Origin: Octopus vulgaris
Taxonomy: Eukaryota
Length of the DNA stretch: 64,000 bases
Assembly: GCA_951406725.2 (NCBI GenBank)
Contig: OX597833.1
Location: 52,514,001 to 52,578,000 of the forward strand
Direction of reading: 5' to 3'
The notes beneath the pieces were generated by a model. The model did no database searches. It saw only the letters and a program-made list of their open reading frames with translations, and was not told where the DNA came from. Position 1 is the first letter of the stretch. Every line of letters starts with the position of its first letter. This document shows positions 1-64,000 of the stretch, one piece after another. Made by a program: the position numbers and the translations under genes.

Positions 1-210
1 ATGGTTGAAGGAATTTGGGACTGACGGAAATTCAGACAGGATAATACAGAAAAACCACACTGCTAGGAACCACAAGGATCCCAAGGAAAGTGTTTGAAAA
101 CTGAGCTGAGGAAAGAATCCCACAGGAGAATTATTCACTGGTTGTGTCTCGTTCCTTGGACTGTGAAAGTGATACATGATCTATGTGCGATATGGATATA
201 ATTATAATAA
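1..210 (+). mobile_element. 3' end of Dong/R4-clade non-LTR retrotransposon (degenerate)
   Basis: With one extra A removed, 44-104 reads IQK-TTLLGTTRIPRKVFEN*, matching the IQKxxLLGTxxILRxxL C-terminus of R4/Dong RLE proteins; followed by a short UTR and ATAATAAT tail. Confidence 0.6.
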
Positions 211-7208: not shown

Positions 7209-7992
7209 GACGGCGAGCTGGCAGAAACGTTAGCACGTCGGGCGAAATGCGTAGCCGTATTTCGTCCGCCGCTACGTTCTGAGTTCAAATTCCGCCGAGG
7301 TCGTCTTTGCCTTTCATCCTTTCGGGGTCGATAAATTAAGTACAAGTTACGCTCTGGGGTCAATGTAATCGACTTAATCTGTTTGTCTGTCCTTGTTTGT
7401 CCCCTCTATGTTTAGCCCCTTGTGGGTAATAAAGAAATAGGTATTTTGTCTGTCGTTACGTTCTGAGTTCAAAATACCGCCGAGGTCGACATTGCCTTTC
7501 ATCCTTTCGAGGTCGATAAATTAAGTATAAGTTACGCTCTGGGGTCAATGTAATCGACTTAATCCGTTTGTCTGTCCTTGTTTGTCCCCTCTATGTTTAG
7601 CCCCTTGTGGGTAATAAAGAAATAGGTATTTCGTCTGTCGTTACGTTCTGAGTTCAAATTCTGCCGATGTCGACATTGCCTTTCATCATTTCGAGGTCGA
7701 TAAATTAAGTACAAGTTACGCTCTGGGGTCAATGTAATCGACTTAATCCGTTTGTCTGTCCTTGTTTGTCCCCTCTATGTTTAGCCCCTTGTGGGTAATA
7801 AAGAAATAGGTATTTTGTCTGTCGTTACGTTCTGAGTTCAAAATACCGCCGAGGTCGACATTGCCTTTCATCATTTCGGGGTCGATAAATTAAGTACAAG
7901 TTACGCTCTGGGGTCAATGTAATCGACTTAATCCGTTTGTCTGTCCTTGTTTGTTCCCTCTATGTTTAGCCCTTTGTGGGCAGTAAAGAAAT
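7209..7992 (+). mobile_element. Nin-domain SINE (family A) with three extra tandem ~184-bp body copies
   Basis: Units start at 7257, 7441, 7626 and 7810; Nin motif gaggtcgac.ttgcctttcatcctttcg.ggtcgataaattaagta; TSD atata(c/t)acgttcggat at 7192-7207 and 7993-8008. Confidence 0.9.
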
Positions 7993-8453
7993 ATATATAC
8001 GTTCGGATATGCCAAATTCTATTAAGAGAAATACATACCTCATTGTTTGCGTTCTCACACCTCTTGAAATATTATCAATTTCGCAGCCATCAGCAGGCAA
8101 ATGATTTTTCTGTAGATATCTATAAACAAGGGTGAGTACTCTTTTTAACGCATTGATCTAAGGAGGTCGTTGACTGTATAGAGACACATAATACGGTTCA
8201 AAATTCACCTTATATCAGTTAATCAACTGTGTTATGAACACACATCGTCTAGAAGAAGAAAATGTTCCCTGATGAGAAAATAGAACTGTGATTTAACGTA
8301 TTCATGTTCGAATCTGCCAGTGCGTATTAAGAAAGAATAGATACGTTTTGTTTGGAATCTCGCTGTTCTGCGTGCACCTCATCAAGTATTTGGTGAGGCT
8401 TTCTTTCGCAGTGGTAGCTTTCAAGCTGTGAGGCTCTTTATAGGTGTATGTAC

Positions 8454-8491
<38 letters not shown>

Positions 8492-9086
8492 ATGTGTGTG
8501 CGATTGTGTGTTTCTGGGCAAGGTAAATTTTTTTCCTTCGTTTTACCACAAACCAAGCACTGTTTGACTCAACTAACATTCCAACGTCTGTGGAATACGC
8601 AGTATGAAGTATAATTATATTATTTGGCTATACACACACATGCGAACGCGTGCACACACACACACACAAGCATACAGACGCAAGCACACATACGCAAGCA
8701 CACATATATACACACACGCACATACACATGCACATAAATATGCACATACAAAAATCGTAGAATACCTGCATATGTATCATATAATTTTTCCCCTCTCTCC
8801 TCCTATTTCCCCATTATATATATATATATATAAGTTTAACAATTAAGGATAATCTCTTAATAAGGGATCTTAACAAGAAATTATCGGGTAGCTAGCGTGA
8901 AAACCTCATAAAAGAATCCGAAAATAATTTTTTTCTTTTGAACAAATTAATTATATCTATATTGTATAGAGGGCATTATTACACATAAATGCCTCACACT
9001 AGGAGGGACAAAGTCATTACTACCAAAATTATACTAATCATACCCAAATGCAGTTTTTCAAAGCAAGACATTTAAAAAATGAATTT

Positions 9087-9144
9087 AGTTCTGTATCACC
9101 GTGATTTCACATACAACTTGCGTCTAATGATCGTCAGCAGAACT
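9087..9144 (-). ncRNA. Type I hammerhead ribozyme motif (family 1, copy 1)
   Basis: Reverse complement: AGUUCUG-CUGACGA-stem II (U.U first pair, CAU/AUG, GAC-GCAA-GUU)-GAAA-UCACGGUGA-UA-CAGAACU. Confidence 0.75.
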
Positions 9145-9566
9145 GATTCTGAACACATCATAAATAAACTACCAACCTTACGTAGCGAAGACGAACAGAC
9201 AACTGCTCACTCCGGCCAAGCACATGGAATGTTTATAAATCATATATCCGGTAAATGGCGGGCTTTTTACGAACTGCATGTCGGGTAATGAAAAGTATTT
9301 CAGAATAAGTTTAACAATTAAGGATAATCTCTTAATAAGGGATCTTAACAAGAAATTATCGGGTAGCTAGCGTGAAAACCTCATAAAAGAAAAGAATCCG
9401 AAAATAATTTTTTTCTTTTGAACAAATTAATTATATCTATATTGTATAGAGGGCATTATTACACATAAATGCCTCACACTAGGAGGGACAAAGTCATTAC
9501 TACCAAAATTATACTAATCATACCCAAATGCAGTTTTTCAAAGCAAGACATTTAAAAAATGAATTT

Positions 9567-9624
9567 AGTTCTGTATCACCGTGATTTCACATACAACTTG
9601 CGTCTAATGATCGTCAGCAGAACT
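9567..9624 (-). ncRNA. Type I hammerhead ribozyme motif (family 1, copy 2)
   Basis: Identical to 9087-9144, 480 bp further along. Confidence 0.75.
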
Positions 9625-10153
9625 GATTCTGAACACATCATAAATAAACTACCAACCTTACGTAGCGAAGACGAACAGACAACTGCTCACTCCGGCCAAG
9701 CACATGGAATGTTTATAAATCATATATCCGGTAAATGGCGGGCTTTTTACGAACTGCATGTCGGGTAATGAAAAGTATTTCGGAATAAGTTTAACAATTA
9801 AGGATAATCTCTTAATAAGGGATCTTAACAAGAAATTATCGGGTAGCTAGCGTGAAAACCTCATATGAGGTTTTCACGCTAGCTACCCGATAATTTCTTG
9901 TTAAGATCCCTTATTAAGAGATTATCCTTAATTGTTAAACTTATTCCGAAATACTTTTCATTACCCGACATGCAGTTCGTAAAAAGCCCGCCATTTACCG
10001 GATATATGATTTATAAACATTCCATGTGCTTGGCCGGAGTGAGCAGTTGTCTGTTCCTCTTCGTGGCCCCTAGTGGGTAATAAAGAAATAGACCATTGTC
10101 TGTTCGTCTTCGCTACGTAAGGTTGGTAGTTTATTTATGATGTGTTCAGAATC

Positions 10154-10211
10154 AGTTCTGCTGACGATCATTAGACGCAAGTTGTATGTGAAATCACGGT
10201 GATACAGAACT
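10154..10211 (+). ncRNA. Type I hammerhead ribozyme motif (family 1, copy 3)
   Basis: agttctg ctgacga tcattagacgcaagttgtatgt gaaa tcacggtga ta cagaact; predicted AUA cleavage after 10204. Confidence 0.75.
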
Positions 10212-10627
10212 AAATTCATTTTTTAAATGTCTTGCTTTGAAAAACTGCATTTGGGTATGATTAGTATAATTTTGGTAGTAATGACTTTGTCCCTCCTAGT
10301 GTGAGGCATTTATGTGTAATAATGCCCTCTATACAATATAGATATAATTAATTTGTTCAAAAGAAAAAATTATTTTCAGATTCTTTTCTTTTATGAGGTT
10401 TTCACGCTAGCTACCCGATAATTTCTTGTTAAGATCCCTTATTAAGAGATTATCCTTAATTGTTAAACTTATTCCGAAATACTTTTCATTACCCGACATG
10501 CAGTTCGTAAAAAGCCCGCCATTTACCGGATATATGATTTATAAACATTCCATGTGCTTAAGTGAGCAGTTGTCTGTTCGTCTTCGCTACGTAAGGTTGG
10601 TAGTTTATTTATGATGTGTTCAGAATC

Positions 10628-10685
10628 AGTTCTGCTGACGATCATTAGACGCAAGTTGTATGTGAAATCACGGTGATACAGAACT
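10628..10685 (+). ncRNA. Type I hammerhead ribozyme motif (family 1, copy 4)
   Basis: Same motif 474 bp after copy 3; predicted cleavage after 10678. Confidence 0.75.
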
Positions 10686-10842
10686 AAATTCATTTTTTAA
10701 ATGTCTTGCTTTGAAAAACTGCATTTGGGTATGATTAGTATAATTTTGGTAGTAATGACTTTGTCCCTCCTAGTGTGAGGCATTTATGTGTAATAATGCC
10801 CTCTATACAATATAGATATATATATATATATATATATATAAT

Positions 10843-10885: not shown

Positions 10886-10943
<58 letters not shown>

Positions 10944-11003
10944 TTAATTGAAAAGCATTTATCAGAAAGAAGCCCACCCTAAAAAATATTCTATGTCTTG
11001 GAC

Positions 11004-11067
11004 ATAGAGTAACCAAAGGCTTCGCATACACAAAGCAAAGCCTTGCGAACAGCTCGTCAGACTCTAT
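11004..11067 (-). ncRNA. Degenerate type I HHR in the Neptune 3' UTR (family 2)
   Basis: Reverse complement: AUAGAGU-CUGACGA-GC...GC-GAAG(A to G)-CCUUUGG-UU-ACUCUAU. Confidence 0.6.
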
Positions 11068-11135
11068 ATAAATACAAAATTTAAAATACGTACGTCACAT
11101 ACGCGATGAAGCGCTCAGAGCTCGAGGAATAAGTC

Positions 11136-12159
11136 TTAACAAGAAAACGTTAATGAGGGCCGGTTTCTCCTCTGAATCAAAGGGAAAAAAGCCCTTATAG
11201 ATCCAAAGAAGCCTATGGGAGATCCAATTTTCCAGTAAGTAGCGCTTGAAGTTGATACATTTAGAAAATGCTTTTTACGACTTTTTAATGTGCCAGGTTT
11301 CTTATAGTCCTTAAGAATTTTGGCTCTCTCCGCGATACAGATCTTGCAACGGCCACTTCTATTAATATACGAGCCCGGATGATCAATTAATTTCTCCCTT
11401 ATATCACACGGAGTCCTTTGATCTTTGAGGTGCCATACATGGCGGGCCAGGGACGTGGCTAACTCTTTCCGGGACTCTGAATGATGACTGGTGATTAAGT
11501 AAGAAAACGTCACTTGAACGAAGTACTCGCAGAACCAATACATTTATTTACACACGTAAGATGTGTCCCTATTCGCATCACTGGAAACATACGGCGCGGG
11601 GCTGGTCCTCCTGTCGTTGTCAAAGATAAATATTTGGTCATCTTCTGAGGTGGCGGAACTGGGAACAGCGGATACCTCCTCCAAGTCGCTGATCCTGGAT
11701 AAGTCATTATTTCGAGGTGCGGCGTTTGTACTGGTGGTAACATATATTGCGGGCTTGGTCAATCTATCTGTTTCTATGGTTTGTTCAAAATCCGTGGCTT
11801 TGTCACCGGGGTCTTCAGGGACGCTTTCTATGATGCTGATCCCGGATTGGTCATTATCTCTGGGCGTGGCAAATGTATTGGGGTGAGAACTGCTTAATCT
11901 GCAAATAATATTGCTGTCTGATGGTACATTACTGTTGTTGTGGATATCAGGTCTGGGTTTCAGCATAACTTCATAGATGACCCCTTCAGCTTCGCATCGG
12001 CCTCCTACTGGACAGTTATTATATTCTCTGAAAGAGCAACCTGCCTCCTCCATTTTATTGTGGGTACTTACTAAAATGTATTTTTTATGACAGGTGCACA
12101 ACTGAAGGAGACTCTTGGGTTCTGTTTGTTAAATGAATGCCTGTATCTATGTGTGTGCA

Positions 12160-12198
<39 letters not shown>

Positions 12199-12470
12199 GA
12201 GAGAGAGAGAGACAGAGACAGAGAGAAACGTTTTTCTATGAATCTAAGGAAAATCTTCCCCACACAGGTTTTGAAATTCGGTGAGAAGAGTGGAGCAAAC
12301 GAAACCACATTTCTGCGGCGCTTCCTTTTCCGGCTGCTAGGGCCTGGCATGTAGGGGATGCTGTCCTTAAACCCACTCGATGACAGTGCCTCATCGTAGT
12401 AGGGGGTAGCGGCGTCGAAAATAGCTTGGCTTGAGGAAAAATTGTAGATCCTCTTGTTTATCCGGCCGCC
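11136..12470 (-). pseudogene. Disrupted PLE polyprotein C-terminus (GIY-YIG endonuclease)
   Basis: Pieces lie in ORFs 12147..12350, 11544..12101, 11510..11743 and 11136..11543; frameshifts plus a microsatellite at ~12150-12225. Confidence 0.8.
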
Positions 12471-12543
12471 TCGTCAATAACACACGGACACACATACTCG
12501 TGCTCTCGATCGAACTAGTATTATATATATATATATATATATA

Positions 12544-26989: not shown

Positions 26990-27072
26990 TTTTCGACATA
27001 TGTTTCGAAGGCTGCATATTCCTAATTTCGAAGGAATAAGGGGTGCATTATGCCGCCTTCTCATCAGGAAAA
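26990..27072 (-). ncRNA. Canonical type I hammerhead ribozyme (family 3, mirror copy)
   Basis: Exact reverse complement of 27132-27214. Confidence 0.88.
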
Positions 27073-27131
27073 GTAAGGAACTTATGTCAGCATCAAGATG
27101 CACAAACTTGATGCTGACATAAGTTCCTTAC

Positions 27132-27214
27132 TTTTCCTGATGAGAAGGCGGCATAATGCACCCCTTATTCCTTCGAAATTAGGAATATGCAGCCTTCGAA
27201 ACATATGTCGAAAA
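27132..27214 (+). ncRNA. Canonical type I hammerhead ribozyme (family 3)
   Basis: UUUUC-CUGAUGA-GAAGGC..GCCUUC-GAAA-CAUAUG-UC-GAAAA; GUC cleavage after 27209; palindromic stem III ACAUAUGU. Confidence 0.88.
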
Positions 27215-58924: not shown

Positions 58925-59235
58925 ACGCAGTCGGTTTTGACGACGAGGGTTCCAGTTGATCCAATCAATGGAACAGCCTGCTCAAGAAACTATCGCACAA
59001 GTGGTTGAGCACTCAACAAACATGCATACCCTTAACGTAATTCTGAGGGAGATTCATCGTGACACAGTATATGACAAAGCTGGCCCTTTGAAATACAGAT
59101 ATAATTAATTTTGCCAGCTGAGTGGGCTGGAAACACGTGAAATAAAGTATCTTGCTCAAGACCACAACAAACCACCGAGAATCGAACTCAGGACCTCACG
59201 ATCATGAGCCAAATACTCCTAACCACTAAGTCATG
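58925..59235 (-). mobile_element. SINE head D with B-type tail
   Basis: Homologous to 24877-25188. Confidence 0.75.
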
Positions 59236-59524
59236 TTTTTTCAAGGAAGTTTATGACAAACTAGAGACATAACCCGAATGTTTGCAATAGTCTGGATTTT
59301 GCTACAAGAGCGCAGAACACCAGCCGATTGTATTAAATTGAACAACAGATTAAGCTTATTATTCAAGTAAAGTACAGTAGGATTTGAACTCAAAATGCAA
59401 TTATTTCACAGTTCTATATTTAAGAAATGAGAAATTATGTACATTATATATATTATTTACATTATTTGCATTATTTGCATTATTTACATTTGATGGATAT
59501 TTGTCCTCATCTTGTTTGTTGTTA

Positions 59525-62783: not shown

Positions 62784-64000
62784 CGAGGGACGTTCAATAA
62801 GTAATGCCTCTGACCCACTTGCAGTTGTTTGATCTAGCTGCATGTGCAATCATTTATATCTCTATAGAGTAAGTGGCAAATTACAGCTCTGAATTAATTG
62901 TGGTTTCTGATTTACAGGTGTTTGAACCGAGTCAAGTGTGAAATGGAGCCTGTTGAGTGTCGAGCAGTGATCCGGTTTTTGTATTTGAAAGGACGCACAC
63001 CACGGGAGACTTTTGATGAAATGAAAGTAACTTATGGTGATGATGCCCCATCATATGACCTTGTAAAACGCTGCCATCGTGAATTCAAACTCTGTGGAAC
63101 TCTGTGGAAACAGCTCCCAGATCTGGTCGCCCCTTCTGCCATTGATGAGGCATCTGTCCGTCAAGTTGAGGCTGCCATTTTCGAAGATCGACGCATAATT
63201 ATTCGCCAAATAGCCCATGAGTTCAAGATTAGTACCGGGTCTGTGGAAACTATCATTCATGACCATTTGCATATGCAAAAGGTGTCTGCCAGATGGATTC
63301 CCAGGTTGCTCACACCTTTCCAGAAGCAAGAACGCGTCCAGTGCTCGAGGGTGAATTTGGAGATGTGCCAAGAAGATGAGTTAAAATTTTTCAAAAGACT
63401 GATTACACAGGATGAAACCTGGGTCCATCACGATGATCCAGAGACCAAAGCCCAGTCAATGCAGGGGAAGCACCGTGACTCACCCCCTCCAAAGAAGGCA
63501 AGGGTGCAGCCCTCCTCTGGCAAGGTCATGCTCACAGTCTTCTGGGACCAGGACGGAGTAGTGATGACAGATTTCCTGGCAAAGGGTACCACAATTGCAG
63601 GAACCTATTATGCTTCACTTTTGAGGAAATTAAGAGAAGTTATCAAAATCAAGAGGCGGGGCAAGATCAGCAAAGGCATCCTCCTCCTGCAGGACAACGC
63701 TCCGGTCCACAACTCGCTTGTCGCCAGATCAGAAGCACAGGCGTGCGGCTATGAACTCCTCCCCCATCCCCCCTACTCTCCTGACCTTGCACCCTCTGAT
63801 TTTCACCTCTTCCCAGTCATGAAGTTGTTTTTGAAAGGAAAGCGTTTCCCAGATGATGCAGCCTTGATTTCTGAAGTCACGTTCAGGTTGGAGGACCAAG
63901 CTGGGGTCTTCTACAAAAACGGTCTCCAGAGCTGCATCAAACGATGGGAGAAATGCGTAACTCTGGGTGGTTCCTATGTAGAAAAAGACTAATAACTGTG
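62784..64000 (+). mobile_element. Mariner (DD34D) transposon, 3' TIR outside the window
   Basis: TA|cgagggacgttcaataagtaatgcc 5' TIR followed by the transposase ORF. Confidence 0.92.
62943..63992 (+). CDS. Mariner transposase, 349 aa (irritans-like), probably defective
   Basis: MEPVECRAVIRFL HTH, WIPRLL, TQDETW, LQDNAPVH-x34-D and HPPYSPDLAPSDFHLF; compensated frameshift at ~63090-63133. Confidence 0.85.
   Translation: MEPVECRAVIRFLYLKGRTPRETFDEMKVTYGDDAPSYDLVKRCHREFKLCGTLWKQLPDLVAPSAIDEASVRQVEAAIFEDRRIIIRQIAHEFKISTGSVETIIHDHLHMQKVSARWIPRLLTPFQKQERVQCSRVNLEMCQEDELKFFKRLITQDETWVHHDDPETKAQSMQGKHRDSPPPKKARVQPSSGKVMLTVFWDQDGVVMTDFLAKGTTIAGTYYASLLRKLREVIKIKRRGKISKGILLLQDNAPVHNSLVARSEAQACGYELLPHPPYSPDLAPSDFHLFPVMKLFLKGKRFPDDAALISEVTFRLEDQAGVFYKNGLQSCIKRWEKCVTLGGSYVEKD

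Follow-up and report, generated by a model that had tools for sequence, protein, structure and literature searches.

An ORF-free hammerhead repeat of Octopus vulgaris as a probable non-LTR retrozyme with a PLE-like insertion footprint

The window, a 64,000-nt stretch of the Octopus vulgaris genome, contains two runs of head-to-tail, hammerhead-bearing units that face each other across a palindromic centre. This arrangement raises the question of what kind of element the array represents and which machinery inserted it. Penelope-like elements (PLEs) have been proposed as helpers of animal retrozymes on the basis of common hammerheads, co-occurrence and pLTR homology. We conclude that the array is probably a protein-free, hammerhead-bearing non-LTR retrozyme insertion, likely copied in trans by a PLE at a (TA)n target from two fixed sites.

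The array and its hammerhead motifs

The features of the locus are collected in Table 1. Unit starts in the window lie at 8830, 9305 and 9785, spaced by 475 and 480 nt, in the same register as the 8832, 9307 and 9787 of the original prediction. With units numbered from the first base 3' of the predicted cut, the left arm consists of a partial unit (~190-480), a full 480-nt unit (9573-9094) and a terminal part running to unit position 269 (the long end, A). The right arm comprises a partial unit, a full 474-nt unit (10205-10678) and a terminal part running to 136-142 (the short end, B), given as a range because the TA tract overlaps it. The zero-spacer inversion previously proposed was borne out by 192 perfectly matching base pairs on each side; its centre is symmetric, at unit position ~189-190, and the two arms can be aligned over ~960 nt. 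The expected (TA)n tracts flank the array on both sides, and the units are ORF-less as described, the longest ATG frame of the left arm being 69 aa. The structure thus stands as first drawn, except that a 39-nt insert in the right arm and the fixed nature of the outer ends, which are the two ends (A and B) of a whole family, had been overlooked. The insert resembles the 3' end of a 185-bp SINE-like repeat, four tandem copies of which lie at 7257-7993 of the window and which we take to be an octopus SINE.

Table 1. Features of the array and its surroundings in the window
Feature	Position	Strand	Remarks
(TA)n target, left	8815..8831	none	
Array left arm	8830..9864	minus (hammerhead sense)	
Tail	8830..8957	minus	~130 nt, unit positions ~137-269; terminates the long arm, absent from the short-arm end
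Type I hammerhead motif	9087..9144	minus	predicted cut after 9094
Type I hammerhead motif	9567..9624	minus	predicted cut after 9574
Perfect palindrome	9673..10056	none	192 bp per side of the zero-spacer centre 9864/9865
Array right arm	9865..10820	plus (hammerhead sense)	
Later insertion, right arm	10047..10105	plus	39 nt (10057-10095) between two 10-bp target duplication copies
Type I hammerhead motif	10154..10211	plus	predicted cut after 10204
Type I hammerhead motif	10628..10685	plus	predicted cut after 10678
(TA)n target, right	10810..10840	none	
Neighbouring PLE, decayed, 5'-truncated	10942..12473	minus	RT thumb, Zn-finger linker, broken GIY-YIG
Hammerhead-like motif of the neighbouring PLE	11002..11069	minus	in 8 of its relatives; unrelated to that of the array

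The four type I motifs were found where they had been placed and are identical, combining a 7-bp stem I, CUGACGA, U10.1.U11.1, GAAA, the AUCAC-G-GUGAU stem III and an AUA triplet. Their predicted cuts are 480 nt apart on the minus strand and 474 nt apart on the plus strand. The U.U at the base of helix II has a tolerated counterpart in the axolotl HHR_Amex2. Stem III was computed at +0.8 kcal/mol as a hairpin and -11.9 kcal/mol as an intermolecular duplex, a difference that in prediction favours cleavage in the dimer and makes plausible the earlier suggestion that the palindromic stem III promotes dimeric cleavage. In the window variant, the monomer is predicted to adopt a minimum-energy structure other than the hammerhead, and stem I has a competitor in a local hairpin. 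The predicted 480-nt circle (GC 33.8%, 65% paired) folds at -122.4 kcal/mol versus -92.5 +/- 6.0 kcal/mol for shuffled sequences, 0/60 of which were that low; the hammerhead is not formed in this fold. Transcripts of the array are predicted to cut themselves, most readily in dimeric form, into monomers of 474-480 nt, some of which would circularise.

A generic hammerhead scan of both strands of all 64 kb returned the four motifs and one poor candidate near 27,100. The latter was called on both strands within a perfect inverted repeat (27051-27153; ~45 bp per arm, short spacer) that carries a CUGAUGA motif on each strand, and is no convincing hammerhead. An Rfam search of the window called the array hammerheads neither at the gathering threshold nor at E<=5, and its miRNA matches in the array were dismissed as merely the palindrome. 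Elsewhere, the window contains an open 364-aa mariner/Tc1-type transposase frame (62898-63992, plus) and a weak tRNA-like match (59167-59240, minus; 32 bits) that is probably a SINE head.

A dispersed family with two fixed ends

The window array is one insertion of a young, dispersed, ORF-free repeat family. When the unit was used as the query, 40 of 1,604 candidates were scored and contained 221 matches, while a hammerhead pattern search found 401 exact intact cores, including 45 exact copies of the window's own variant, against 0 for a control pattern. Near-identical sequence is also present in sequencing runs of four organism labels. In total, 158 loci were mapped. Besides the window, whole-unit similarity supplied 38 of them and exact junctions the others, 79 of type A and 40 of type B. 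The set includes every one of the 100 A junctions listed (of 127) and, on contigs C1-C8, 40 of 63 unpaired B junctions; two of the loci (L142 and L162) have common flanks and are probably a single event counted twice. ORF-free arrays, which the original prediction had asked to be sought genome-wide, are therefore widespread, reaching ~12 units, and a palindrome is how members of the family usually insert, rather than something peculiar to the window locus.

An older related subfamily (L230-L259; L137, L150, L159 and L164), ~75-85% identical to the unit, shares its short end with the young family and shows canonical G10.1-C11.1 pairing; in one of its forms the full hammerhead is the minimum-energy structure. 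In a set of 16 related variants from young and older subfamilies, whose relatedness inflates the shuffle control, 93.8% of cells in the hammerhead pairing can pair, as against 25-37% in slid controls. Two-sided changes occur in 5/18 hammerhead pairs, four of them in stem I and one at the stem II base, where the U.U of the young form corresponds to G-C or A-U in older ones; stem III is nearly invariant. Substitutions in the hammerhead core number 3/1,656 compared with 552/70,733 elsewhere in the unit. Judged from these alignments, the predicted hammerhead fold is conserved across subfamilies.

The arms end at two fixed positions, ~269 (A) and 136-142 (B), with 127 exact junctions into (TA)n for A and 186 for B. 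On contigs C1-C8, for which both junction lists are complete, 24/24 end pairs within 10 kb are A+B and outward-facing, where a hand calculation puts the chance of such a pair at ~0.48 each. Two-armed elements are A+B in 62/74 cases of a first batch, the other 12 having one odd end, and in 31/33 of a later batch. This gives 93/107 overall, with no A+A (0) and no B+B (0) and with one end at neither site in 14/107. The proportion was 20/25 among two-armed elements picked without regard to their ends. Two members of the odd-end class, L041 and L129, are A+B elements interrupted by later insertions. One-armed insertions terminate at A or at B, while 5' ends and centres of arms are variable. Fixed 3' ends together with variable 5' ends and centres indicate 3'-anchored reverse transcription from two internal sites rather than random permutation, so that the earlier phrase 'permuted tandem copies' has to be corrected: the copies are not freely permuted. 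The proposed mobilisation by a PLE, on the other hand, agrees with the insertion footprint of two fixed ends, inverted arms and a (TA)n target. A clear target-site duplication was seen only at L134; elsewhere the TA tracts would hide them.

An arm of the interrupted L041 (contig C2, ~63.534-63.539 Mb) harbours an apparently intact LINE (L041:2456-7743). It sits at unit position ~388-393 with a short overlap resembling a target duplication, and its frames encode 495 aa with a weak zinc-knuckle match and a 1,133-aa endonuclease-RT-zinc finger protein.

Neighbouring and intact PLEs

The original prediction had also pointed to a Neptune PLE close to the array. A real PLE is indeed there, but it is decayed, its coding remains start ~445 bp from the array, and it is unrelated to the unit in sequence. 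It was rejected as a parent or helper because of this decay, the lack of DNA similarity to the unit and its different hammerhead; the neighbouring PLE is a bystander outside the array. Pfam assigned no family to two of its three pieces and gave a sub-threshold match for the third. A 100-150-aa Thr/Asp/Asn-rich low-complexity insert separates its GIY and YIG halves (11544-12000, minus) and is common to five relatives (L072, L076, L087, L088 and L090).

With the RT of a relative of this PLE as the query, a different, intact and very young PLE family was found. Its unit measures 2,590 bp and contains an open frame of 717 codons (708-aa protein); copies are 98-100% identical, with more than 100 near-identical RT copies among the matches listed. 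Its ends, P1702 and P1769, run into (TA)n and define a 67-nt tail. In 20 loci (L171-L190) chosen mostly for tandem or inverted RT matches, 14 of the 18 elements with both ends visible are long+short, one is long+long (L178) and three have an odd end. A deviant hammerhead-like motif (CCGAAGA plus a GUU triplet) lies upstream of both ends, and this order, the motif followed by two ends, is common to the intact PLE and the retrozyme unit. Among 1,011 relatives recovered for the 708-aa protein, none of the 120 that were listed carries a name, so the clade label depends on the CxC-x5-C motif of its linker, which is of the Neptune/Nematis kind; 'Neptune' is the name we presume to apply.

A blastn comparison of the intact PLE with the 480-nt unit gave no significant DNA similarity (best E 0.32). 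Homology of the unit to the pLTR of this PLE was likewise rejected, the local alignment being equalled or exceeded by 246 and 47 of 300 shuffles. The two agree only in short motifs at the two ends, which are partly forced by the TA target. Their partnership is therefore argued from footprint, target and age, and we put the intact PLE forward as helper of the retrozyme family at about even confidence.

Formation of the arrays, alternatives and known systems

In the mechanism that we favour, the PLE reverse transcriptase/endonuclease would nick both strands of the (TA)n target, with synthesis starting from site A at one nick and from site B at the other. Both cDNAs would halt at variable points. 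Their fusion through the 5' ends, in many cases where a small hairpin or palindrome lies, would then yield a head-to-head array. An alternative to this dual priming is a single priming event followed by fold-back of the cDNA (self-priming), after which cutting or resolution at the other fixed site would produce the second end. A cDNA that copies itself leaves one arm contained in the other, and the short arm is contained in the long arm in 60/93 A+B elements, the window locus among them. Symmetric centres, found in 16/62 elements of the first batch (shuffled mean 1.5, maximum 7 in 10,000) and in 9/31 of the later one, are far more frequent than independent stops predict, and the window element is again one of them. 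Self-priming has also been proposed for PLE palindromes (PMC3846280). However, neither arm is contained in the other in 25/93 A+B elements (18/62 and 7/31), which are not explicable as simple fold-backs from either arm and for which two priming events are needed. Moreover, A-only and B-only one-armed insertions both exist, so each site primes alone. Single priming with fold-back is the less probable of the two, but it may apply to a subset that includes the window locus. Fold-back or hairpin-guided joining does operate in a subset of elements, and the window copy, compatible with fold-back, was made either in that way or by two priming events.

As to the template, 70 of the 82 arms reaching position 10 read through the cleavage site, so the template was continuous there, either as a circle or as an uncut multimer. 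Under the latter alternative, the same element and PLE machinery would copy an uncut linear multi-unit transcript, and unequal exchange would later enlarge or homogenise the arrays. Units differ by 1.2 substitutions within a locus versus 6.5 between loci (99 units, 39 loci, leaving aside the rearranged pieces of L034 and L065), in agreement with a single kind of template per insertion. Of the locus-private variants, 'private' meaning among the 39 loci so that unsampled donors may account for some, 8 occur in every pass (6 of these in both arms), 9 in some passes and 62 in one. In the 12-unit array L051, private variants recur in 13 of 13 passes, the opposite arm included; such a pattern is unexpected from unequal exchange within one arm, and this uniform array is most simply explained by a circle. 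Conservation of the hammerhead across subfamilies also speaks against a route without circles. The nine patchy variants and a unit of another lineage in the mixed L034 point instead to later turnover or multimer templates. L044 has a variant confined to one arm, and the 2.6-kb coding PLE likewise forms tandems. The dominant substrate of an anole PLE was unprocessed RNA (PMC11167929), and Li et al. 2026 favour local amplification, with 8/9 of their dimers uncleaved (bioRxiv 10.64898/2026.07.22.740005). We regard the circle-free route as a serious minority possibility and lean slightly towards a circle as the template of multi-unit arms.

An apparent pile-up of 5' ends at the cleavage site (12/82 stops in positions 1-10 vs a 5.9% background; p 0.003, one of ~24 bins) was rejected: about half of it consisted of over-extended alignments at a hairpin near 6-50, and positions -2..3 held only 5/72 (p 0.11). 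At least half of the unit's words are present in 19/24 listed sequencing runs (9 studies, 4 organism labels), none of them recorded as RNA. Contigs of runs guessed to be RNA cover the unit irrespective of transcript level, strand, ends or circularity, and such contigs could equally result from carried-over DNA, the repeat being multicopy. In five runs (X1, X5, X7, X13 and X16), cleavage-junction contigs are often of the L051/L057/L099 lineage variant, uncommon in this assembly, which may reflect a species difference or one active donor.

Two further explanations concern the nature of the element itself. The unit could be no more than the pLTR belonging to a coding PLE, with the arrays as truncated debris, given that hammerhead, tail, inversion and target are all PLE-pLTR-like and that Xenopus retrozymes are homologous to pLTRs (Li et al. 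2026, bioRxiv 10.64898/2026.07.22.740005). Yet the units are directly consecutive, with no frame between them, and with the 708-aa protein of one PLE type as the query no match adjoins an arm in any of the 158 loci (nearest 445 and 532 bp) or occurs in the older subfamily (0/30 loci). The pLTR-debris reading is thus improbable and largely refuted, in keeping with the retrozyme-type element of the original prediction. Even less probable, to the point of being very nearly dismissed, is a palindrome created artificially by the assembly or by fold-back of long reads, or a passive satellite in which the motif arose by chance. Zero-spacer palindromes are a familiar long-read artefact, and none of the contigs compared spans the window locus. 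Nevertheless, deletions and an insertion bounded by a target duplication of its own set the two arms apart, so they had separate histories and the array is no read artefact; in addition, the family obeys its end rule at ~100 loci and the motif covaries.

The retrozyme reading agrees with published descriptions. Metazoan non-LTR retrozymes, reported in coral, mussel and axolotl (Cervera and de la Pena 2020, PMC7229834) and in vertebrates (Li, Clavereau and Pollet 2026, bioRxiv 10.64898/2026.07.22.740005), likewise consist of tandem units that lack ORFs and carry a single type I hammerhead apiece. They share the low GC, the well self-paired predicted circle, the weak helix III favouring dimers and the co-occurrence with PLEs. 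The 480-nt unit exceeds the 150-450 range of the former source but lies within the 51-972 of the latter. In the text consulted, these sources do not describe several features of the octopus family, whose short arrays are dispersed, have fixed ends and head-to-head arms and lie in (TA)n targets; 'inverted' has 0 occurrences in the main text of PMC7229834. Whereas cleavage and circles are known for metazoan retrozymes, the octopus family is known here from DNA sequence and predicted folds.

EN+ PLEs (PMC3846280, PMC8557442) likewise show partial tandems, an inverted 5'-truncated copy, a tail confined to one end, palindromes where the copies invert, targets that are AT-rich or microsatellites, and a hammerhead upstream of two ends. 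The octopus unit differs in having no ORF and a tail of ~130 nt rather than 30-40 nt, and its one-long-one-short rule is backed by a count over 107 elements. The anole Poseidon PLE has two internal RT start sites, its RT, a predicted dimer, nicks and extends both strands, and insertion in vitro is possible without hammerhead cleavage (PMC11167929). Chlamys non-autonomous elements such as MRC1 are also non-coding PLE dependants with multicopy head-to-tail insertions (PMC8557442). Their 3' ends resemble those of their autonomous partners, whereas the octopus unit is nearly without similarity to its candidate helper, and the clade of MRC1 lacks the canonical hammerheads that the octopus family has.

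One-sided pLTR tails, junction palindromes, dual RT starts and the retrozyme-PLE link have thus been published (PMC11167929, PMC3846280, PMC8557442, PMC7229834 and PMC7761336), so that the element class, the tails, the inversions and the dual start sites are already in print. A literature search that took in few subscription papers turned up neither an account of an octopus retrozyme nor one that counts a one-long-one-short rule. What is new is a family member among animal non-LTR retrozymes that behaves like a non-autonomous PLE, with a countable PLE footprint and a candidate active helper.

Together, our results show the whole PLE insertion footprint in a family without any ORF, and the strict one-long-one-short rule limits the models for PLE tails and inverted pLTRs. 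An intact PLE of the same genome follows the same two-end rule at the same target, whereby protein, RNA, two start sites and target can all be named. Speculatively, and with more doubt than confidence, we hypothesize that a PLE RT dimer acts on a single ribozyme-made 480-nt circle, carrying out rolling-circle reverse transcription from both sites at once, one per nicked (TA)n strand, with the intact 2,590-bp PLE recognising the circle by structure and not by sequence. If this were true, the octopus genome would hold a matched, currently active pair of helper and retrozyme.
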